Source: an uncultured virus (IMG/VR IMGVR_UViG_3300020183_000049)
Lineage: Duplodnaviria > Heunggongvirae > Uroviricota > Caudoviricetes
Reading direction: 5' to 3' (one strand)
DNA length: 20,000 bases
IMG/VR virus record: IMGVR_UViG_3300020183_000049
Positions 2,874-15,510 of the stretch are shown one piece after another. Below the pieces are notes generated by a model, which worked only from the letters and a program-made list of their open reading frames with translations, was not told the DNA's origin and searched no databases. Position numbers and translations under genes: made by a program. Positions within the stretch are counted from its first letter, which is position 1. Every line of letters starts with the position of its first letter.

Positions 2874-3212
2874 TCAATAGTCCTGGTCTTCTTCGTCTTC
2901 TTCTTGTGATGGGGGACGAAGGTTTGATGGAGGATGAGTATCTTCGTGAATTATTTCAAGTACTCTGTTCCAGGCACCGACCAGAAAATCTTTATCCTTT
3001 TGGGTTAGGTTGCTTCTACTAGTTGCATCCCTTTCAGTTTTAACATAATCAATATCATCCAACAGTGATCTACACACTTGCATAATATGATCGGTTGTTG
3101 CCTTCATAGATACTCGATCCATATCCCCTTCATAGTCGGAGGTCTCTTGATTTTCAAGTATTCTATGAATGATCCTTTTAAGATCTGACTCAGTGAGTGT
3201 TACTCTTCTCAT
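2874..3212 (-). CDS. Small acidic protein with LTE leader
   Basis: 112 aa, MRRVTLTESDLKRIIHRILENQ; ATGA overlap with upstream gene. Confidence 0.8.
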   Translation of the reverse strand: MRRVTLTESDLKRIIHRILENQETSDYEGDMDRVSMKATTDHIMQVCRSLLDDIDYVKTERDATSRSNLTQKDKDFLVGAWNRVLEIIHEDTHPPSNLRPPSQEEDEEDQDY

Positions 3213-3604
3213 TGGTTCTCATCATCCATATCCCCGGTTACATCTTCATCATCCATATCCCCGGTTGTGTCTTCATGATCCACATCAATGATTTGTTCAT
3301 AGTCATCGGCATAATCATACTCTTGGCTTCTTACACCAAGTTGATCAAGTTCGCCCCTCATTGTATCCAACAAATAGTCCTTTTCTTCGGAGTCAATGGA
3401 GGTATCCCCGGAAAGTTCGTGGAATAAATCGATAATGTCACTTATTGAATCATAAATGTTCTCAATACGACTATCGAGCATTTGTTTATATTCTTCTAGA
3501 CTATAATTTGGTTCCCCCTCATTTAGATTATTATCAGCAACTTGTTCCATTACGTTGACGATCATTCTTTTTAGTTCGTTTTCTGTTAGTCTTATTTTTT
3601 TCAT
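3209..3604 (-). CDS. Small very acidic protein with LTE leader
   Basis: 131 aa, MKKIRLTENELKRMIVNVMEQ; C-terminal ED.TGDMDD duplicated; ATGA overlaps. Confidence 0.8.
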   Translation of the reverse strand: MKKIRLTENELKRMIVNVMEQVADNNLNEGEPNYSLEEYKQMLDSRIENIYDSISDIIDLFHELSGDTSIDSEEKDYLLDTMRGELDQLGVRSQEYDYADDYEQIIDVDHEDTTGDMDDEDVTGDMDDENQ

Positions 3605-4035
3605 GGTGTTATATTTGGTTGTGTTGGTTGAACGGGTGGTTGAATATTACCACTCTTTATGTTATTGATTGTTGTATCAAGTTCATCTTGATATTCTTCG
3701 AATTTTGTTTTTACATTAGTAATCATTCTTTCTAGTGCAGCTTTTCTTTCTTGTGTCATTGAACTATTTCTTATTCTTGTAAGTAACATATCCAGATGTC
3801 TCATCACTTCTTCATTGGGTACATCCAGTTTTTTAAGTCTATTTAAAAACCGAGAGAGTGCTGTTGAATGTTCACCATACTTAAACCCCTCACCTCGATA
3901 CATTCCCCTAATACCACTTATTAGATCTCCCACTCTAGATAGGGGGTTTCTTCCATCCTTAAAAAACGATTGTTCCTCTATTGTTCTTTTTATGATCCCC
4001 CTTAATTGAGACTCAGTTAAATAAATCTTTCTCAT
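3601..4035 (-). CDS. Helical protein with LTE leader
   Basis: 144 aa, MRKIYLTESQLRGIIKRTIEEQ; ATGA overlaps. Confidence 0.8.
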   Translation of the reverse strand: MRKIYLTESQLRGIIKRTIEEQSFFKDGRNPLSRVGDLISGIRGMYRGEGFKYGEHSTALSRFLNRLKKLDVPNEEVMRHLDMLLTRIRNSSMTQERKAALERMITNVKTKFEEYQDELDTTINNIKSGNIQPPVQPTQPNITP

Positions 4036-5638: not shown

Positions 5639-5735
5639 TACACAAATACAACATAATCTTGGTGGGTAGGTGAAGTAAAACTGGACAAATGTGTGAGTTA
5701 TACACAATATTTTTTTATCCACGCATAGGTTTAAA

Positions 5736-6317: not shown

Positions 6318-6572
6318 TTATCCACCAAACTTTTTTCCAAAATGACTGTAATTCTTTTCTACAGATTCTCTGTGACCAAATTTAAGAGCCACTGATTCCG
6401 AATCAAAGATAGCATTAACTGGACATTCTCTTATACAAAAACCACAATCTATACAAATATCCGGGTTGATATACATTTGCTCTCCACCATCTTCTATACA
6501 ATCAACTGGACATACTTCAATACAAGAACCATCTTTTTCACCTATACAAAGAGAAGAAATTATATGTGACAT
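6318..6572 (-). CDS. Dicluster Fe-S ferredoxin (FdxA/7Fe-like)
   Basis: 84 aa with C-x7-CIEVCPVDCI and CIDCGFCIRECPVNAI motifs. Confidence 0.92.
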   Translation of the reverse strand: MSHIISSLCIGEKDGSCIEVCPVDCIEDGGEQMYINPDICIDCGFCIRECPVNAIFDSESVALKFGHRESVEKNYSHFGKKFGG

Positions 6573-6777: not shown

Positions 6778-7314
6778 TCAACCCTGAGGGTAACCAAAAT
6801 TCCTTTGTGGCTCAATTCCTGGAACTTTCCCAATTAGTTGTCTACAATATTTATTGGAAATTTCCCTTAGTAAATTTTCACTGTACCAAAACCTTGTATT
6901 TAAACTTCTATTCTGGCTACCAACTAACTCAAAACCAACTTGGAGAGTTTTATCACAACTACAATAAATGTCTAAATTATTGAATTTACCAGTACCATAT
7001 AAACCCCCTATTGATTTTCCACTATTATCAATCAAGTTTACATCAAGATGTACACCCATGTATGGAGCTCCTGTCCTTGATTCTTCCTCGTAAGAACCAA
7101 CCCCCTCAACCTGAATAGAAAAATTAACGTCTGGGGGACCTATTGGTTCATTATTACCATACCCCCCCATGGTTTTTTGTCTTATACTGAATCTTTTCCC
7201 AACTAAACTAGCTAAAACCTTACTTGGATCAGGAAGCTTATCACCTTCCTCCTTAATAACTCTTCTGATAAGTCTTTTCAAATCAGCTTCTGATAATCTT
7301 ATTGTTCTTTTCAT
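6778..7314 (-). CDS. Hypothetical beta-rich protein with LTE-type leader
   Basis: 178 aa, MKRTIRLSEADLKRLIRRVIKEE; ATATTTAT motif upstream. Confidence 0.8.
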   Translation of the reverse strand: MKRTIRLSEADLKRLIRRVIKEEGDKLPDPSKVLASLVGKRFSIRQKTMGGYGNNEPIGPPDVNFSIQVEGVGSYEEESRTGAPYMGVHLDVNLIDNSGKSIGGLYGTGKFNNLDIYCSCDKTLQVGFELVGSQNRSLNTRFWYSENLLREISNKYCRQLIGKVPGIEPQRNFGYPQG

Positions 7315-7481
7315 AATATTTTTTATTCATAAATATCTAATAGTTAGAAAAACAAAATTCATCGCTTTCTTCCTCATTCAGAACATAACCATAATACATA
7401 TCATACATATTACCTGTTGTTATTTTACACATTAAACTGTCATCTAATTTTCCCATAGATTTTAGTTTTCTGATTATACAA

Positions 7482-7589
7482 TTATACTCCCGGTTTGTTT
7501 TTGTCTTGGTAGAGCTTAATTGCAATTAGTACCACACTGAAGACACAAATCATAATGAGATTCATGGTCACAAAGTCAATTCTGTTCAT
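7482..7589 (-). CDS. Putative 35-aa single-TM membrane peptide
   Basis: Manual translation MNRIDFVTMNLIMICVFSVVLIAIKLYQDKNKPGV; A-rich leader and ATATTTAG upstream; below the ORF-track cutoff. Confidence 0.45.
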   Translation of the reverse strand: MNRIDFVTMNLIMICVFSVVLIAIKLYQDKNKPGV

Positions 7590-7728
7590 AGATCTTATTT
7601 TTTTTATATTCTAAATATAGAAATTAATTTTCAGATATCAAATCCGACACCAGATCACCTGGTGAAAAATTATAACGAGTTGTAATATATTGATTGTCAG
7701 AAAAATAGAGTAAATTTGTGACAAAATT

Positions 7729-7758
7729 TGTCCAGTTTTTTTGTAAATTAACTGGACA
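7729..7758 (-). terminator. Hairpin just past the last CRISPR repeat (possible terminator or processing signal)
   Basis: TGTCCAGTT (7729-7737)/AACTGGACA (7750-7758) perfect 9-bp stem; weak U-tract. Confidence 0.4.
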
Positions 7759-7766
7759 TATTGTGT

Positions 7767-7924
7767 ATTGTGTAAATCCCCATTTTTGGGACAATCCACA
7801 ATCCTTCGGTTCGAACTGTTCGGAATCTCCGAATTGTATAAACCCCCGATTTTTAGGACAATCCACAATTACCGCATAATGATTGTAATTGTGTAAACCC
7901 CCCATTTTTAGGACATTCCACAAT
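7767..7924 (-). CRISPR. Mini CRISPR array: 3 repeats (36-37 bp), 2 spacers (18 and 30 bp)
   Basis: Repeats at 7888-7924, 7833-7869, 7767-7802; first repeat on minus strand ATTGTGGAATGTCCTAAAAATGGGGGGTTTACACAAT. Spacers 7870-7887 (TACAATCATTATGCGGTA) and 7803-7832 (TCGGAGATTCCGAACAGTTCGAACCGAAGG). Lies ~215 bp downstream of a Cas12f-like gene. Confidence 0.85.
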
Positions 7925-7932
7925 AGAACGTC

Positions 7933-8090
7933 TTGTAGAATCGTCCAACATAAGAGGTTTTCGGTGAGTGAGATTTCTCTCCTTCCCCTGTTGATTCAGG
8001 GTTCACCATAGCGGTTCACAATAACCGCGAACTTGATAGATGATCGTCAAGTTCAAAACTGAACCATAGATTAAATCCTTAGGTTCCGAA
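7933..8090 (-). ncRNA. tracrRNA-like scaffold with 3' anti-repeat
   Basis: Anti-repeat 7933-7960 is complementary to most of the repeat, with G-U wobbles only in minus-strand RNA. Stems: GGTGA/TCACC (7963/8003), CCCTG/CAGGG (7986/7997), GCGGTT/AACCGC (8011/8023), GAACTTGA/TCAAGTTC (8029/8047), GAACC/GGTTC (8061/8082). 5' end approximate. Confidence 0.75.
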
Positions 8091-8111
8091 TTTGATTCTA
8101 AATAACTAATA

Positions 8112-8123
8112 TGTCAAAGAACA
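8112..8123 (-). promoter_or_regulatory. boxA-like antitermination element
   Basis: Minus-strand TGTTCTTTGACA, one mismatch to the boxA consensus GYTCTTTAANA, between the cas stop and the ncRNA. Confidence 0.45.
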
Positions 8124-8140
8124 ATATGTATAAAATATAA

Positions 8141-9517
8141 TCAAGATTCTGATAAAGTCAAATTTTTTTGTTTCCATTTTTCAATTTTTCCATGTTTTGA
8201 CTTTGGTTTTACCGGGTGACCTTTGAGTCTGGATATATTAATTGCCGCATTGATATCAGCATCTTGTTCAATTCCAAATTTATCACAATCCACTTGTTGA
8301 CAAACAAATTTGGTTACGTCTGTTTTACTGCGATTATTTTCATGTTTATACTTGCAACAATGACAGGTTTGTGATGTGTATTTTGGATCATCCCATAAGA
8401 CAACGATACCTTTGGATTTCAATTTGGTCTCCAATACATTTTGTAAATGTGCATACTGAAAATTATGAAGAAACCCCTCACGTACTGACGCAAGTCCAGT
8501 TAGATCTTCCATGATCACGTGTGTTGCTCCCATACTAACCAAGGATTTCATAACATTGGATGTTAACTGATGAATAAAATTATTATTGAATCCTTCTTTT
8601 TTACTCTTGAATGCATCGGTACCCTTCATTTTTCGTTTTCTTCCGTGACCTCCTTTTGCATATTGAGCCAAAGATCTGGATCTTGATACCTTGTCGTCAA
8701 ATTGACGGATCCTGTCCTTGTAATCCAATCCATAGGTAATTTGACGAACGTATTCACCTGATGTGGTTCCGATCGTAATGGGTCTATTGAACCCGATATC
8801 AATGCCAAAAGTCTTTGTTGGTCTATCGGTATCAACCAGATCATTTGATTCAACCTGGGGAACTTCATATGACAAGTGTAACATTAACTCTACCCCTTTA
8901 TCTCTGTTGTATGTGATTTTGGATTCACACATTTTGTATGTACCGTCTTTGATACCTTTTAATACATCGTACTGATACCTATTGTTTGATCTTACAATAA
9001 TTTTGAAGGTTGTATCAAAATTTAATTGTTCACCTTTGGTTTTGGGTAGTTTTAAAAAATAATTTCCATCCTCAAATACGATTGTATTTCCCTTTCTTGG
9101 TCGAAAATGAATTGGTTGATTCCGATTGTATGACGGAATTGAAGTTTTCATTTGAACAAAGTCTCTCGTGTTTTTTTTAATCGTGGATTGAATTCTATTT
9201 ATTGATGCATCAAAAATATGGGATGGAATATAAGCATATTTACCAGTACGATACTGATATCGGTATGAACTATCTTTTAAATCCCCCAACATATTTGAGA
9301 AATGATCTTCGACAAATCTTTTGATTTCTTGATCATCCTTAAAATTGTTTTGTGACTGGATTCTTATACAGAGGTGTGTGGCCATTTGGTTTCCAACCTC
9401 CGCCAAGTCTGATTGCATTTTACGAATGTATTCAATACATTCTTTTTTTTCATTTGGTGTACCAAAGATTTGTAATTTGTACGAATTGGTTTTGATGTTC
9501 TTTTTTTGGGTTACCAT
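8141..9517 (-). CDS. cas12f: Cas12f-like (TnpB-superfamily) RNA-guided RuvC endonuclease
   Basis: 458 aa. RuvC-I GIDIG, RuvC-II MEDL, RuvC-III ADINAAINI, Zn-ribbon YTSQTCHCC...CQQVDC, and SIPSY and GGHGR motifs as recalled from AsCas12f1; adjacent anti-repeat and array. Confidence 0.85.
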   Translation of the reverse strand: MVTQKKNIKTNSYKLQIFGTPNEKKECIEYIRKMQSDLAEVGNQMATHLCIRIQSQNNFKDDQEIKRFVEDHFSNMLGDLKDSSYRYQYRTGKYAYIPSHIFDASINRIQSTIKKNTRDFVQMKTSIPSYNRNQPIHFRPRKGNTIVFEDGNYFLKLPKTKGEQLNFDTTFKIIVRSNNRYQYDVLKGIKDGTYKMCESKITYNRDKGVELMLHLSYEVPQVESNDLVDTDRPTKTFGIDIGFNRPITIGTTSGEYVRQITYGLDYKDRIRQFDDKVSRSRSLAQYAKGGHGRKRKMKGTDAFKSKKEGFNNNFIHQLTSNVMKSLVSMGATHVIMEDLTGLASVREGFLHNFQYAHLQNVLETKLKSKGIVVLWDDPKYTSQTCHCCKYKHENNRSKTDVTKFVCQQVDCDKFGIEQDADINAAINISRLKGHPVKPKSKHGKIEKWKQKNLTLSES

Positions 9518-9539
9518 TTTGATTAAATTAATTGTGGGA

Positions 9540-9570
9540 CAAATATAACTTATAACCGTGAAAATACAAA
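9540..9570 (-). promoter_or_regulatory. Bacteroidota-type housekeeping promoter for cas12f
   Basis: Minus strand TTTG (9570-9567)-19 nt-TATATTTG (9547-9540), matching the -33/-7 consensus TTTG-N19-21-TAnnTTTG. Confidence 0.8.
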
Positions 9571-9576
9571 ATATGG

Positions 9577-10059
9577 TTAGGTGTGCGATTCTTTGATAAC
9601 AATTTTGGTTATGGATTTGATATTCTCTAAAATATCATCGAATTTCTTTTCAATGTATTCATCAAAATGAAATTCATCATCAAAATCTCTCCCCCCATCA
9701 AATTCAACATTAAATTTTTGTTCTTTCAGTAATTTTTTTAACAAGAATATTACTCGTGATTTGCCTGAGTTTTCAATACCAGAGACATCAATGGTTATTT
9801 CATTTTTTGGTCGGTTGTCTATGATTTTACCATCTGAATCCTCATAGTAGATACAATTACGTTGAGAATCGTATTCCCTCTTTTCCCACCGTCTATCTGT
9901 ATCCTCAAAGTAGATACAATTACCTCGAGAATCGTAATTCCTTATTGCCCAATATCCACTTATAGATTCAATGTAGATTGGAAGTCCATCATGGTTGTTG
10001 ATTTTCAATACACCATTGGTCTTGAAATCCCAGTTGATTTGCTCAGCTATTGTTTTCAT
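9577..10059 (-). CDS. Hypothetical protein: YD-like beta repeats plus C-terminal Walker-A-like segment
   Basis: 160 aa; repeats YDS.(G/R)NCIY(F/Y)ED, then IDVSGIENSGKS. Confidence 0.65.
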   Translation of the reverse strand: MKTIAEQINWDFKTNGVLKINNHDGLPIYIESISGYWAIRNYDSRGNCIYFEDTDRRWEKREYDSQRNCIYYEDSDGKIIDNRPKNEITIDVSGIENSGKSRVIFLLKKLLKEQKFNVEFDGGRDFDDEFHFDEYIEKKFDDILENIKSITKIVIKESHT

Positions 10060-11243: not shown

Positions 11244-11930
11244 TCAGAAGAACTCACCACAATTTTTTGTACATATTTCTTTAACCTTAGGTATCATTTT
11301 TCTTATTTGATCACTTGAATAATCTCTAGATAGTGGTGTACGATACAAAAATAATCTTCCTAAAACTTCTAAGTCTGGTGGTAGTTCAGTTATATTGGTA
11401 TCTCTGAGATCTAAATCATACTTTACTTTAAGACCACTTGGAAGTGATGTGATGTTTTTACAACCGTCTACATCCAAATATCCATTAACTGCAAAATTGT
11501 CTGGAAGTTTTTCTATCGGTGTTCTTAGAAGAAAAATACTATTACCAACTTCTAAGTCTGGTGGTAGTTTAGTAATATTGGTATCTCTGAGATCTAGATC
11601 ACCTTTTACATTAAGACCACTAGGAAGTGATGTGATGTTTTTACAACCGTCTAGATCTAAATCACCATTAACTGTTAAATTATTTGGAAGTGATTTGAGA
11701 TTTTCACATCCAATTAACATTAGATTGCGATCAACTTTGGTAAGGTTTTTTGGTAAGACTTCTATGGGTGAACCATTTAAATCTAAATCACCTTGTGAAC
11801 CATTTTTGATGTAATCTCGTATTTTTCTATGGGTTCTAAAAAGTAATTTCTTATCCTTTTCCTTTTTTGTTCTTCGAGGAATAAAGATGTTGTCATCACT
11901 TTCTTTTAATATGTCCAGGAACTTGATCAT
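11244..11930 (-). CDS. LRR-like repeat protein, paralog 6 of 6
   Basis: 20-21-aa repeats LPxxLxVxGxLxLxxxxIxx; shared MIKFLDILKES...FIPRRT N-terminus; start 11930 gives ATGA overlap. Confidence 0.85.
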   Translation of the reverse strand: MIKFLDILKESDDNIFIPRRTKKEKDKKLLFRTHRKIRDYIKNGSQGDLDLNGSPIEVLPKNLTKVDRNLMLIGCENLKSLPNNLTVNGDLDLDGCKNITSLPSGLNVKGDLDLRDTNITKLPPDLEVGNSIFLLRTPIEKLPDNFAVNGYLDVDGCKNITSLPSGLKVKYDLDLRDTNITELPPDLEVLGRLFLYRTPLSRDYSSDQIRKMIPKVKEICTKNCGEFF

Positions 11931-12613
11931 ACCCATATTTCTTTAACCTTAGGTATCATTTTTCTTATTTGATCCCATGAAAGATTAGATAGTGGTGTAC
12001 TTTGTAGAAGAATAGTTCCTTCAACTTCTAAGTCTGATGGGAGTTCAGTTATATTGGTATCTCTGAGATCTAAAGTTCCAAGGACTTTTAGACCACTAGG
12101 AAGTGATGTGATGTTTTTACACTCTCTTAGATTCAAACTACCATGGACTATTAAATTATTTGGAAGTTTTTCTATCGGTGTACGATACAAAATTATATTA
12201 TATCCAACTTCCAAATCTAGTGGTAGTTCAGTAATATTGGTATTTGAGAGCCAAAGATTACCTAAAATTAATCTTGATAAATTACCTTTTACTTTAAGAC
12301 CACTAGGAATTGATGTGATTTTTGTACAACCTCCTAAATCTAAACTTCCATTAACTGTTAAATTATTTGGTAGTGATTTGAGATTTACACATTCATTTAA
12401 CACTAGATCACCATTAACTTCAGTAAGGTTTTTAGGTAAGAATTCTATAGGTGAACCACGTAAAACTAAATCACCTTGTGAACCATTTTTGATGTAATCA
12501 CGTATTTTTCTATAGGTTCTAAAAAGTAATTTCTTATCCTTTTCCTCTTTTGTTCTTCGAGGAATAAAGATGTTGTCATCACTTTCTTTTAATATGTCCA
12601 AGAACTTGATCAT
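11927..12613 (-). CDS. LRR-like repeat protein, paralog 5
   Basis: 228 aa, same architecture, with a short insertion (GNLSRLILGNL). Confidence 0.85.
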   Translation of the reverse strand: MIKFLDILKESDDNIFIPRRTKEEKDKKLLFRTYRKIRDYIKNGSQGDLVLRGSPIEFLPKNLTEVNGDLVLNECVNLKSLPNNLTVNGSLDLGGCTKITSIPSGLKVKGNLSRLILGNLWLSNTNITELPLDLEVGYNIILYRTPIEKLPNNLIVHGSLNLRECKNITSLPSGLKVLGTLDLRDTNITELPSDLEVEGTILLQSTPLSNLSWDQIRKMIPKVKEIWV

Positions 12614-13275
12614 AGAAATATGTCTCCTTTAACCTTAGGTATCATTTCTTCTATTTTATCCATTGAAAGATTAGATAGTGGTGTACCGTGTAAAAGAATA
12701 CTTCCTCCAACTTCTAAGTCTGGTGGTAGTTCAGTAATATTGATACCTCTAAGATCTAGACAATATTTTATTTTAAGACTAGTTGGAAGTGATGTGATGT
12801 TTTTACACTCTCTTAGATTTAAACTACCATGGACTATTAAATTATTTGGAAGTTTTTCTATCGGTGTATGATTCAAAATTATATTATATCCAACTTTCAA
12901 ATCTAAGGGTAGTTCAGTAATATTGGTATCTTGGAGATCTAAAGTACCTATTACTTCTAGACCACTGGGAAGTGATGTGATGTTTTTACAACCCTCTAGA
13001 TCTAACCGACCATAAACTGTTAAATTATTCGGTAGTGATTTGAGATTTTTACATCTGAATAATAAAAGATCACCATTAACTTCGGTAAGGTTTTTTGGTA
13101 AAAATTCTATGAGTGAGCCACGTAAATCTAAATCACCTTGGAAACCATTTTTGATGTAATCTCGTATTTTTCTATAGGTTCTAAAAAGTAATTTCTTATC
13201 CTTTTCCTCTTTTGTTCTTCGAGGAATAAAGATGTTATCATCACTTTCTTTCAATATGTCCAGGAACTTGATCAT
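12610..13275 (-). CDS. LRR-like repeat protein, paralog 4
   Basis: 221 aa, same architecture, ATGA overlaps. Confidence 0.85.
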   Translation of the reverse strand: MIKFLDILKESDDNIFIPRRTKEEKDKKLLFRTYRKIRDYIKNGFQGDLDLRGSLIEFLPKNLTEVNGDLLLFRCKNLKSLPNNLTVYGRLDLEGCKNITSLPSGLEVIGTLDLQDTNITELPLDLKVGYNIILNHTPIEKLPNNLIVHGSLNLRECKNITSLPTSLKIKYCLDLRGINITELPPDLEVGGSILLHGTPLSNLSMDKIEEMIPKVKGDIFL

Positions 13276-14117
13276 TGATATATTTCTCCTTTAAAATTAG
13301 GTATCATTTTTCTTATTTCATCCTTTGAAAGATTAGATAGTGGCGTGTTATACAAAACTATACCCCATTTGACTTTTAGATCTGACGGTAATTTTTCAAT
13401 ATTGGTACCTCTTAAATATAAATTCATCGTTTCGAGTCCGTTAGGAAGTGATTGTAAATTTTTACAATGACTTAAATCTAACTCTCCATTAACTTTTAAG
13501 TTATTCGGAAGTTTTTTTATTGGTGTTCTTTGAAGATAAATACTTTCTCCAAATTCTAAGTCTGGTGGTAGTTCAGTAATATTGGTATCTCTGAGATCTA
13601 AAGCACCGTCTACTTTAAGACCACTGGGAAGTGATGTGATGTTTTTAGAACCCTCTGCATCTAACCTACCATCGACTTTTAAATTTTCTGGAAGTTTTTC
13701 TATCGGTGTTCTCATTAATATAAGACTTTTTCCAAATTCTAAGTCTGGTGGTAGTTCAGTAATATTGGTATCTCTGAGATCTAGATTACCTTTTACTTTT
13801 AAACCATTAGGAAGTGATTTGAGATTTTTACATCCCATTAATACTAGATCACTATTAACTGTTAAATTATCTGGTAGTGATTTGAGATTAACACATTCAT
13901 CTAATATTAGATCACCATTAACTTGGGTAAGGTTTTTTGGTAAGAATTCTATAGGCGAATCACGTAAAACTAAATCACCTTGTGAACCATTTTTGATGTA
14001 ATCACGTATTTTTCTGTAGGTTCTAAAAAGTAATTTCTTATCCTTTTCCTCTTTTGTTCTTCGAGGAATAAAGATGTTGTCATTACTTTCTTTCAATATG
14101 TCCAAGAACTTAATCAT
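13272..14117 (-). CDS. LRR-like repeat protein, paralog 3 (one extra three-repeat unit)
   Basis: ~60 aa longer than its siblings; start 14117 gives ATGA overlap. Confidence 0.85.
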   Translation of the reverse strand: MIKFLDILKESNDNIFIPRRTKEEKDKKLLFRTYRKIRDYIKNGSQGDLVLRDSPIEFLPKNLTQVNGDLILDECVNLKSLPDNLTVNSDLVLMGCKNLKSLPNGLKVKGNLDLRDTNITELPPDLEFGKSLILMRTPIEKLPENLKVDGRLDAEGSKNITSLPSGLKVDGALDLRDTNITELPPDLEFGESIYLQRTPIKKLPNNLKVNGELDLSHCKNLQSLPNGLETMNLYLRGTNIEKLPSDLKVKWGIVLYNTPLSNLSKDEIRKMIPNFKGEIYQ

Positions 14118-14782
14118 ACCCATATATCTCCTTCAACATTAGGTACCATTTTTCTTATTTCATGACGTGGATAATTTCTAGATAGTGGTGTGTTATACAA
14201 AATTAATCTTCCTAAAACTTCTAAGTCTGGTGGTAGTTTAGTAATATTGGTATCTCTGAGATCTAGATCACCTTTTACATTAAGACCACTAGGAAGTGAT
14301 GTGATGTTTTTACAACCGTCTAGATCTAAATCACCATTAACTATTAAATTGTCTGGAAGTTTTTCTATTGGTGTTCTCATTAATATAAGACTATTTCTAA
14401 CTTTCAAATCTGGTGGTAGTTTAGTAATATTGGTATCTCTGAGATCTAAAGTTCCAAGTACTTTTAGACCACTCGGAAGTGATGTGATGTTTTTACAACC
14501 CTCTAGATCTAACCTTCCATTAACTGTTAAGTTATTTGGAAGTGATTTGAGATTTTCACATCTAATTAATATTAGATCACCATTAACTTGGGTAAGGTTT
14601 TTAGGTAAGAATTCTATAGGTGAACCACGTAAATCTAAATAACCTTGTGGAGCATTTTTGATGTAATCACGTATTTTTCTATAGGTTCTAAAAAGTAATT
14701 TCTTATCCTTTTCCTCTTTTGTTCTTCGAGGAATAAAGATGTTGTCATCACTTTCTTTTAATATGTCCAGGAACTTGATCAT
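14114..14782 (-). CDS. LRR-like repeat protein, paralog 2
   Basis: 222 aa, same architecture. Confidence 0.85.
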   Translation of the reverse strand: MIKFLDILKESDDNIFIPRRTKEEKDKKLLFRTYRKIRDYIKNAPQGYLDLRGSPIEFLPKNLTQVNGDLILIRCENLKSLPNNLTVNGRLDLEGCKNITSLPSGLKVLGTLDLRDTNITKLPPDLKVRNSLILMRTPIEKLPDNLIVNGDLDLDGCKNITSLPSGLNVKGDLDLRDTNITKLPPDLEVLGRLILYNTPLSRNYPRHEIRKMVPNVEGDIWV

Positions 14783-15510
14783 AACAATATTATTTCAACC
14801 TTAGGTACCATTTTTCTTATTTCATCACGTGAATAATTTCTAGATATAGGTGTGTCATACAAAACTAAACTTTCAACTTGCAAATCTGGTGGTAATTTTT
14901 TGAAATTAGTTTCTCTGAGATTAAGAGTATCAAATACTTTAAGACCACTGGGAAGTGATGTGATGTTTTTGCAAAAGTGTAAATACAACGATCCATTGAT
15001 TGTTAAATTATTCGGAAGTTTTTCTATTGGTGTCCTTTGTAGATAAAGAGTTCCTCCAAATTGTAAGTCTGGTGGTAGTTCAGTAATATTGGTATATCTG
15101 AGATCTAAAGCACCGTCTACTTTAAGACCACTGGGAAGTGATGTGATGTTTTTACAATCATCTAGATCTAAATATCCCTTGACTATTAAGTTATCTGGAA
15201 GTGATTTAAGATTTACACATCTTAATGTTAGATTACCCCTAACTTGGGTAAAGTTTTTAGGTAAGAATTCTATAGATGAATCCACTAATTCTAAATCACC
15301 TTGTGAACCATTTTTGATGTAATCACGTATTTTTCTGTATGTTCTGAAAAGTAATTTCTTATCCTTTTCCTTTTTTGTTCTGCGAGGAATGAAGATGTTG
15401 TCATCACTATTAATTTCTGGCCCTAAATTTGCATATTCTTTTTTATAATCATCTTCAAAAGGGAAGTCCTCAAAATAGATCTCAGACAATATTTTATTGA
15501 ACTTAATCAT
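14779..15510 (-). CDS. LRR-like repeat protein, paralog 1 (longer acidic N-terminus)
   Basis: 243 aa; MIKFNKILSE...SDDNIFIPRRT followed by repeats. Confidence 0.85.
   Translation of the reverse strand: MIKFNKILSEIYFEDFPFEDDYKKEYANLGPEINSDDNIFIPRRTKKEKDKKLLFRTYRKIRDYIKNGSQGDLELVDSSIEFLPKNFTQVRGNLTLRCVNLKSLPDNLIVKGYLDLDDCKNITSLPSGLKVDGALDLRYTNITELPPDLQFGGTLYLQRTPIEKLPNNLTINGSLYLHFCKNITSLPSGLKVFDTLNLRETNFKKLPPDLQVESLVLYDTPISRNYSRDEIRKMVPKVEIILL

Follow-up and report, generated by a model that had tools for sequence, protein, structure and literature searches.

The 20,000-nucleotide stretch of DNA analysed here (the window) comes from an uncultured virus of the Caudoviricetes, IMG/VR record IMGVR_UViG_3300020183_000049. 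Its minus strand carries a gene for a Cas12f-family effector (P0001), followed by ~216 nt without an open reading frame (ORF) and then by the first direct repeat of a short CRISPR array. With a probability of roughly 0.7 we read this as a phage-borne type V-F system in which the gene for the trans-activating CRISPR RNA (tracrRNA), together with the array, forms a single leaderless transcription unit that yields a natural single guide. The scaffold of ~200 nt, the anti-repeat, repeat 1 (R1) and spacer 1 follow one another without a break on the strand that encodes the effector. As a description of gene architecture the single-guide reading is well supported; a natural single guide is likely as the primary transcript and plausible as the mature form.

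Natural single guides of Cas12f type have already been published, and the fusion of a tracrRNA with a half repeat has been described. What appears to be new here, as judged from sequence, is that in a phage-borne clade of apparently active Cas12f the tracrRNA also serves as the leader of the array, with the first unit fused to it in cis. In the literature searched we found no nuclease-active Cas12f with a natural fused guide.

Fold of the scaffold and the first repeat

A first-pass annotation, made from the letters of the window, had placed an anti-repeat at 7960-7933 on the minus strand, with a short loop and then R1 behind it. This holds letter for letter, the gap being 8 nt with 9 nt unpaired in the fold. 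The minimum free energy (MFE) fold of 8145-7870 pairs the two elements through 11 base pairs (bp) and, beyond a 3x5 internal loop, through another 13 bp interrupted by a single bulged G; the unpaired loop of 9 nt closes the structure. These are exactly the two helices that had been described. The G-rich part of the repeat is paired with the proximal 11 nt of the anti-repeat, and the repeat's 5' half with the distal 14 nt. The fold of these 276 nt has a z-score of -3.88, with one of 200 shuffles equally stable. The hairpin of anti-repeat and R1 (7962-7886, 24 bp, interrupted) contains four G-U pairs and is worth -27.2 kcal/mol on the minus strand as opposed to -12.0 kcal/mol on the plus strand, so that the earlier remark that the wobbles fit the minus orientation only is correct.

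The anti-repeat also pairs with the other two repeats (R2 and R3). Duplex energies are -28.6, -24.9 and -20.6 kcal/mol with R1, R2 and R3, respectively. When only the distal anti-repeat and the 5' halves of the three repeats are considered the values are nearly level at -16.3, -16.0 and -15.6 kcal/mol, and of 500 shuffles 3, 1 and 3, respectively, pair as well. This makes plausible the suggestion in the first-pass annotation that the later repeats pair with the anti-repeat in trans.

Conservation and covariation

Downstream regions of relatives were anchored on an invariant ACTCAC motif, found in the window at 7969-7964 within the closing-helix region, and 16 loci were aligned with MAFFT. In the relatives the elements come in one and the same order: stem A first, then GGUGA, hairpin B, a hairpin C that varies, UCACC and the anti-repeat. 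A variable loop follows, then the 3' part of the repeat ending in ACAAC or ACAAT, then unrelated sequence. From the 16 loci RNAalifold predicts, besides stem A and hairpin B, the closing helix of GGUGA with UCACC and the helix of the anti-repeat with the cis repeat. The additional stems that had been noticed upstream of the anti-repeat are real and conserved in this alignment.

Folding with a covariance model across homologues had been named in the first-pass annotation as the way to check the fold. It returns 51 matches (described below), and in the 16-locus alignment 96.3% of cells at scaffold pairs hold standard pairs, with compensatory changes in 15 of the 24 pairs. None of 500 shuffles did as well and none of six slid controls came close. 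Stem A has compensatory changes in five of its six pairs. In the helix of anti-repeat and cis repeat, where absence of covariation had been named as telling against the fusion, 94.9% of cells are paired and three of the five pairs show compensatory changes. An alignment of 30 matches fitted to the model gives 97.6% of cells paired and four of five cis-helix pairs compensatory, with the reservation that such an alignment is biased toward the structure. The proposal that scaffold, repeat and spacer 1 act as one folding unit is supported by their contiguity on the strand of the gene, by the fold in cis and by compensatory changes across relatives.

The fold is completed by a pseudoknot. The loop of stem A, AUUGUG (8022-8017), is complementary over 6 bp to the tail of the repeat, CACAAU (7893-7888); in relatives the loop reads GUUGUA or GUUGUG and is complementary to the last six bases of their repeat. 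Paired cells make up 97.8%, two of the six pairs change in a compensatory manner by A-U/G-C switches, and 10-11 of 500 shuffles are as good. The locus therefore encodes a long tracrRNA with a long repeat:anti-repeat stem and a short pseudoknot, as type V-F requires. A search of positions 7000-9000 of the window against 4227 Rfam families (E <= 1) gave no match, and a tRNA scan of the window gave none either.

Two further hairpins in the 5' part of the scaffold (8087-8061 and 8054-8029) are specific to the window and fall outside the conserved model, the covariance-model match being 8037-7888. Coordinates of all features are collected in Table 1.

The cis arrangement in related loci

The covariance model was built from 16 sequences and run over both strands of the window and of the locus sequences L001-L199 (200 sources). 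At E <= 0.01 it finds 51 matches, 17 in the window and L001-L099 and 34 in L100-L199, all 51 on the strand of the effector gene. The window holds a single copy. In L200-L210, which were searched at E <= 1e-8 only, there was no match. Each of the 30 strongest matches spans the full model, that is, an anti-repeat and then a repeat tail in cis, and has a divergent guide behind it.

We call a cis repeat full-length if it is identical to the next unit at 31 or more of 36 positions and a half repeat if it matches later units at 13-22 of 36. Full-length cis repeats are present in 7 of the 30 (the window, L132, L143:1473, L144, L007:1977 and two in L005) and half repeats in most of the others. At least one further repeat tail follows within 450 nt in 26 of 30 cases, though some of these extra tails are spurious, as are two of the four in the window. 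The remaining 4 of 30 are stand-alone scaffold-guide genes lacking further repeat tails, one of which, in L004, accompanies a protein with an intact RuvC site. Connectors between anti-repeat and repeat range across the family from 4 to ~95 nt; the half repeats are 10-14 nt long, and those in cis have loops down to 4-6 nt on stems of 5-8 bp.

Arrays of relatives have 4-7 repeats, and regular ones with unrelated spacers, 5-7 near-identical repeats long, stand immediately behind this scaffold. In L144 a regular five-repeat array starts 0 nt after the anti-repeat, and in L143 a six-repeat array starts ~4 nt after it. In all three close locus pairs compared, identity is 92-95% over the last 100 nt of the scaffold and ~52% in the next 22 nt. 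Such a sharp drop is the boundary between scaffold and guide expected of guide-RNA genes.

The layout is different in canonical loci. In four of four Bacillota Cas12f loci the best anti-repeat window ends 101 (L054), 185 (L053), 219 (L058) or 310 nt (L052) before the first repeat. On account of these gaps we regard cis fusion as a feature of the clade and not as the general Cas12f layout. In type V-F a leader parts the tracrRNA gene from the array, whereas the window has only the 8 nt there.

Several relatives show additional arrangements. Many have a second scaffold copy on the strand of the effector gene and upstream of it, at L002:1888-2497, L003/L006:2003-2126, L004:1506-1629, L005:2059-2230, L007:1977-2168, L051:2291-2394, L135:1245-1364 and L143:1473-1606; that of L002 is followed by an irregular array reaching the start codon, with half repeats of 10-14 nt, full 36-nt repeats and spacers of ~15-37 nt. 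In L138 the whole scaffold is present three times in tandem downstream of a single effector gene (1720-1816, 1908-2050 and 2131-2227), resembling the 'omegaRNA arrays' mentioned in section 12 of PMC10691335. At L051:3954-4070 (equal to the L141 sequence) and L139:3460-3520 a fused guide precedes units of ~12 nt, corresponding to the 3' end of the repeat, separated by spacers of 22-45 nt; these units may be a minimal handle of the CRISPR RNA (crRNA). Gut-metagenome loci L145-L154 and L158, at 26-30% identity, give weak covariance matches (E ~1e-4 to 1e-3) ~700-900 nt upstream of the gene.

The effector protein

P0001 is Cas12f by sequence and by fold. It is a small TnpB-derived effector, within the ~400-700 residues usual for the type, with a C-terminal RuvC domain and zinc finger, and the CRISPR array adjoins its gene (three repeats of 36-37 nt, spacers of 18 and 30 nt), both of which are properties of type V-F. 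The first-pass annotation had taken the system for an intermediate between TnpB-omegaRNA and tracrRNA/array systems, a reading that may hold with either direction of change, the protein itself being a Cas12f.

The RuvC triad (Asp240, Glu337, Asp421) and the zinc-finger cysteines (Cys385, Cys388, Cys406, Cys411) are present, and all seven residues are invariant in 44 of 44 aligned database relatives and likewise in all 10 protein sequences obtained by translating related loci. Because of this invariance, nuclease activity of P0001 is likely. A Cas12f1-like TNB domain is recognised by Pfam. The NCBIfam model NF040570 (guided_TnpB) scores P0001 at 122.1 bits against a cut-off of 100, which makes the protein a member of the RNA-guided TnpB family, whilst scores with the IS200_TnpB and IS607_TnpB models are far under their cut-offs. 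The same NCBIfam scan gave 65.4 bits with the curated Cas12f2 model NF049972, well short of its cut-off of 450, and no match to a curated Cas12f1 model. P0001 also matches PHROG families labelled 'transposase'.

The best sequence matches in the Protein Data Bank (PDB) are 8hr5 (1.8e-29), 9nzo/9nzr (1e-25) and the AsCas12f entries (~1e-22 to 1e-23); ISDra2 TnpB reaches 8e-3 only. An AlphaFold model of P0001, with a mean predicted local distance difference test score (pLDDT) of 77.8, was compared with known structures by use of Foldseek. Al3Cas12f, AsCas12f, CnCas12f1, OsCas12f and SpCas12f1 are the best matches (E 4e-22 to 1e-18, query TM-score (TMq) ~0.6), and all of the top 13 matches listed are Cas12f, with TMq of 0.37-0.62. 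Weaker matches are nuclease-dead Cas12f (dCas12f; 7e-16), TnpB (1e-13 to 3e-12, ISDra2 being at 3e-12) and LaTranC (5.5e-8).

Table 1. Features of the effector gene, guide-RNA scaffold and array in the window
Feature	Position	Strand	Basis
Effector gene, Cas12f family, 458 residues (P0001)	8141..9517	minus	Homology, motifs, predicted fold
Sigma-70-like promoter match, TTGACT, 16 nt, TATATT; overlaps effector stop codon	8134..8161	minus	10/12 consensus
5' motif, GTTCTTTGA-like, conserved before the scaffold in window and relatives; probable 5' part of the RNA	8108..8122	minus	By eye
Two window-specific hairpins in the 5' part of the scaffold	8029..8087	minus	MFE fold
Stem A; its loop is the short anti-repeat	8011..8028	minus	Fold and covariation
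Closing helix GGUGA (8007-8003):UCACC (7967-7963) around hairpin B (8002-7985) and hairpin C (7981-7970)	7963..8007	minus	Fold and covariation
Long anti-repeat, 28 nt	7933..7960	minus	Fold, duplex energies
Connector, 8 nt, anti-repeat to repeat 1	7925..7932	minus	Sequence, fold
Repeat 1 (R1), 37 nt, cis partner of the anti-repeat	7888..7924	minus	Direct repeat, fold
Spacer 1, 18 nt, guide of the putative cis-fused RNA	7870..7887	minus	Between repeats
Repeat 2 (R2)	7833..7869	minus	Direct repeat
Spacer 2, 30 nt	7803..7832	minus	Between repeats
Repeat 3 (R3), degenerate, terminal	7767..7802	minus	Direct repeat
Hairpin of 8 bp with AAAUUUUGU behind it; the transcription unit may end here	7721..7757	minus	Inverted repeat

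Comparison with known systems

The scaffold has the published architecture of Cas12f1 RNA. PMC11246509 and PMC12255294 describe for the latter a long repeat:anti-repeat stem that carries a bulge, together with a pseudoknot of 5-7 bp formed by a short repeat:anti-repeat pairing, and PMC8548392 describes for canonical Cas12f1 a guide of two RNAs, the tracrRNA gene standing between effector gene and array. The window is alike in that position, in the bulged long stem and in the pseudoknot, and AsCas12f, SpCas12f1 and CnCas12f1 (PDB codes 8j12, 9i8y and 8hr5) are of the same effector family and fold as P0001. Engineered Cas12f single guide RNAs (sgRNAs), as given in PMC8548392 and PMC12255294, have a GAAA linker at the position of the natural 8-nt connector of the window. 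The differences are that Cas12f1 has separate tracrRNA and crRNA, with the gap of 101-310 nt in the four Bacillota loci as opposed to 8 nt in the window and 0-4 nt in L144 and L143, and that no cas1, cas2 or cas4 was found in the window, unlike the Cas12f1 comparison systems.

The nuclease-dead dCas12f proteins of Bacteroidota, associated with sigma-E, have naturally encoded single guides, as set out in PMC12259091 and PMC13472631. Altae-Tran et al. (PMC10691335, section 12) propose for dCas12f that fusion of a half repeat with the tracrRNA gave rise to an omegaRNA anew, and for this neighbouring lineage a secondary re-fusion of tracrRNA and half repeat is argued (PMC10691335, section 12; PMC13472631). 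Active Cas12f1 and V-U40-43 groups with 'divergent CRISPR-like arrays' are named in that section as neighbours; one supplementary file of PMC10691335 holds nothing further under V-U40 to V-U43 or 'half DR'. The dCas12f systems and the window have in common a Cas12f-derived protein, a scaffold and guide encoded downstream, in the window putatively as one transcript, and a scaffold whose 3' end is the end of a CRISPR repeat, that is, a half repeat fused to a tracrRNA, as in the family of the window. One published Sphingobacterium dCas12f locus has a chimeric guide and a vestigial array together. Unlike dCas12f the window has an intact RuvC triad, no rpoE or helix-turn-helix (HTH) partner among 20 neighbouring ORFs, a phage-like setting and a fused guide that directly precedes repeat-spacer units, and dCas12f is the poorer fold match (7e-16 as opposed to 4e-22 for active Cas12f).

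The omegaRNA (reRNA) of IS200/IS605 TnpB combines scaffold, pseudoknot and 3' guide in one RNA, as is predicted for the guide of the window; each is encoded 3' of the nuclease gene and has a sharp boundary between scaffold and guide. The window differs in having no recognisable transposon, no TnpA among the 20 neighbouring ORFs, a repeat-spacer array behind the scaffold, and a protein nearer to Cas12f.

TranC systems (Jin et al., Cell 2025) are reportedly intermediates between transposon and CRISPR, whose effector is said to use both a reRNA-type single guide and crRNAs from an array. They resemble the window in the proposed interconvertibility of single guides and tracrRNA/crRNA pairs and in small TnpB-like effectors beside short arrays, some of them phage-borne. 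According to 10.64898/2026.03.27.714800 and PMC13565253 the guide of these TnpB-like effectors is already split into tracrRNA and crRNA; the first unit of the window is unsplit and LaTranC, as noted, is a distant fold match. The tracr-L of Streptococcus pyogenes Cas9 (Workman et al. 2021, 10.1101/2020.05.21.102756) is reportedly a natural example of tracrRNA and guide in one molecule, as proposed here. It belongs to type II, has its guide in the 5' extension of the tracrRNA itself and serves autoregulation, and the guide is not fused to the first unit of an array.

Transcription signals

Between ~8130 and 7925 the minus strand has neither a terminator-like site nor a promoter motif of sigma-70-like or Bacteroidota type. 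Any array transcript would therefore start in or before the scaffold. Termination between anti-repeat and repeat, which the first-pass annotation had named as fatal to the idea of a fused guide, thus finds no counterpart in the sequence. The promoter match at 8134-8161 is a possible start of the guide-RNA transcript. At the other end of the unit the terminator scan did not call the hairpin at 7721-7757, whose loop, as read, is longer than the accepted 3-8 nt.

The hairpin motif TGTCCAGTT / AACTGGACA recurs in the window (7721-7766, 5677-5690 and 6500-6517). It is matched by other contigs of two metagenome runs, at a summed depth several-fold above that of flanking bins, and may be a regulatory or terminator motif of the phage. 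A separate sigma-70-like match falls in R2 (7833-7861, minus strand; TTGTCC, 17 nt, TACAAT; 9/12) and, if real, could drive transcripts from within the array.

Proposed mechanism and significance

Transcription would most likely begin just after the cas12f stop codon and produce one RNA running from the scaffold through R1 and spacer 1 into two further repeat-spacer units. Since R1 is only 8 nt from the anti-repeat the nascent RNA can fold back on itself. The predicted product has three parts, a long repeat:anti-repeat stem with a bulge, a pseudoknot of the repeat tail with the loop of stem A, and a 3' guide, and would amount to a natural sgRNA carrying spacer 1. Within one RNA it would make the interaction that Cas12f1 makes between separate tracrRNA and crRNA. 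Scaffold copies on other transcripts could take up the later repeats in trans, because the distal anti-repeat pairs equally well with the 5' halves of R1, R2 and R3. The first guide should be favoured, the single scaffold of each transcript being already occupied in cis. The connector would stay uncut, spacer 2 and those beyond would be put to use, and the complex would cleave DNA, probably that of competing phages or other mobile DNA.

We extend this to the clade only tentatively. Its nuclease-competent phage Cas12f systems might have 'leaderless' arrays in which the tracrRNA is the leader, the first unit acts as a cis sgRNA and later units act in trans. The 10-14-nt half repeats of some members, with few anti-repeat pairs and the 6-bp pseudoknot tail, could represent the minimal Cas12f crRNA handle. 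Arrays might grow by duplication of half repeats and not by Cas1-Cas2, and omegaRNA and tracrRNA/array forms might interconvert in either direction.

If the fused RNA is a working guide, then nature has built an sgRNA, connector and pseudoknot included, for an active miniature Cas12f, and dozens of natural variants in connector length and repeat truncation could inform the design of compact guides. The interconversion of single omegaRNA-type guides and tracrRNA plus array would be placed within closely related, nuclease-competent loci, where its direction and the rules of cis and trans use are directly testable. A probable RNA-guided weapon would also be added to the repertoire of freshwater phages, contigs of 176-310 kb among them.

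Assessment of alternative explanations

Several questions bear on the single-guide reading. Could the complementarity be fortuitous? Is the locus a mobile element? Does the fused RNA serve only as a precursor, or are the units beyond spacer 1 defunct?

Chance complementarity in AT-rich DNA with runs of G and C we regard as barely credible. Against a background of 13,165 other 40-nt windows on both strands (mean -11.2 kcal/mol, standard deviation 3.75) the duplex of anti-repeat and R1 stands at about z -4.6, and yet two unrelated places in the window pair with R1 more strongly than the anti-repeat does, at -29.4 to -32.2 kcal/mol: a C/G-run hairpin at 2698-2749 and the segment 6985-7024, the plus strand of the latter at -29.4 kcal/mol. 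Duplex energy alone therefore does not single out the anti-repeat. It is singled out by position, strand and conservation: it lies immediately 5' of R1 on the strand of the gene and makes up the 3' end of the scaffold, whose conservation extends over 51 matches. Covariation and the asymmetry between strands likewise speak against chance. A mobile IS200/IS605-type TnpB with an omegaRNA at its right end, the 'repeats' being duplicated fragments of transposon ends, is very improbable. The guided_TnpB and PHROG 'transposase' matches, the guide placed after the scaffold as in an omegaRNA, and an ORF that runs into the scaffold in L004, L007, L135 and L143, as in tnpB, would fit such an element. The 20 neighbouring ORFs, however, include no TnpA-like product, the window has one scaffold copy, relatives carry regular repeat-spacer arrays with unrelated spacers, and the best sequence and fold matches are to Cas12f, ISDra2 TnpB being far weaker on both counts.

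The more serious contenders accept a Cas12f. In an ordinary dual-RNA system the tracrRNA would merely abut the array and a host RNase would cut the duplexes, that of R1 in cis and those of R2 and R3 in trans, leaving the single guide as a precursor only. The window itself gives this some colour. Its anti-repeat spans both repeat halves like a canonical tracrRNA, and its pairing with R2 and R3 is nearly as strong as that with R1, as expected of an ordinary trans-acting tracrRNA, and the duplex, though interrupted, is long and resembles that of canonical tracrRNA and crRNA, so a host RNase could cut it; canonical Cas12f1 yields two separate RNAs, according to PMC8548392. We nevertheless think it unlikely, as the family keeps half repeats in cis on short stems, stand-alone fused guides exist (4 of 30), and the window duplex is broken by the 3x5 internal loop and the bulge. 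Stems of 5-8 bp with loops of 4-6 nt are, in our judgement, unlikely substrates of RNase III. Rather less probable again is that the cis-fused spacer 1 alone works, R2, spacer 2 and R3 being decaying duplicates and the locus an omegaRNA-like gene with a vestigial tail. R2 and R3 do pair progressively worse with the anti-repeat, R3 is one base short and in one strain variant is reduced further by a deletion (7753 joined to 7789), the spacers are irregular at 18 and 30 nt, and with one scaffold per transcript none would be free for later units. The regular arrays of relatives, in which 5-7 near-identical repeats come immediately after this scaffold, are hard to reconcile with the idea, as is the pairing of the distal anti-repeat with R2 and R3 as well as R1.

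Some further observations weigh against the single-guide reading or limit it. Covariation in the cis helix is modest, most of its pairs being conserved A-U and C-G with G-U variants. The promoter match at 8134-8161 is a weak one to a sigma-70-like consensus that may not be the promoter type of the host, in a region with seven such sites as compared with 3.8 +/- 2.2 in shuffles. Contigs from 24 metagenome runs of lake and freshwater origin hold near-identical DNA, and no RNA run is among them. In 7 of 10 half-repeat relatives shuffles do as well as the 5' part of the full repeats in pairing with the anti-repeat region. Targets of the spacers were sought in the window, allowing up to three mismatches, and none was found; 25 nt of spacer 2 have no target in IMG/VR, spacer searches by blastn against 50,697 phage records gave chance-level hits only (E = 2), and the array spacers of L005 gave no target either.

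Two candidate relationships were discarded. More extensive pairing of the relatives' anti-repeat in trans than in cis had been considered, and only 3 of 10 loci beat shuffles (3-12 of 300). The likeness of the spacer 2/R3 junction to 8082-8066 scores 13 against a background of 12 and is treated as chance.

Genomic setting and strain variation

The window also encodes a thymidylate synthase, a ferredoxin, an ExoX-like protein, members of several PHROG families and many ORFans and paralogue families. A Pfam scan of 20 neighbouring ORFs found no TnpA, sigma-factor or HTH families. The source is likely to be a large freshwater phage. A blastn search with 7600-9600 against the 50,697 phage records gave no match, and an exact 22-nt stretch of the scaffold is absent from IMG/VR. 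The protein closest to P0001, at 96% identity, is on a 3-kb contig, and the next is at 38% or less. Scans of viral and genome contigs for the locus with the single protein gave no relatives; profile scans gave close-family loci on IMG/VR viral contigs of 29-310 kb, on metagenome contigs and in one Flavobacteriaceae metagenome-assembled genome.

Strain variants were read from contigs of four metagenome runs. The variant at 7954, C to U on the RNA strand, converts a C-G pair of the proximal stem to U-G and so keeps the pairing; that at 7929 is within the connector. One variant contig from one run joins 7753 to 7789, such that 7754-7788 (35 nt), and with it most of R3, is deleted. Contigs of runs X18/X22 cover 7600-7802 and 7899-8400 and not ~7816-7887, no contig bridging the hole, and two variant contigs continue 54 and 31 letters past 7802 without aligning. 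The hole at 7816-7887 hints at different array content between strains, of which in itself it proves nothing.

Some minor features of the window may be recorded. A 15-nt stretch within 6985-7024, inside the ORF 6778-7314, is 93% identical to part of the CRISPR repeat, probably by chance. That ORF is one of several otherwise unrelated minus-strand ORFs with a common N-terminal motif, M-K/R-K/R-I-x-L-T-E-S-x-L-K/R-R-I-V, for which no family was found; the others are 114-1001, 1033-1953, 2874-3212, 3209-3604 and 3601-4035. At 11244-15510, also on the minus strand, are six tandem paralogous genes (221-283 residues) with only weak Pfam matches, near-identical N-termini and leucine-rich-repeat-like bodies.

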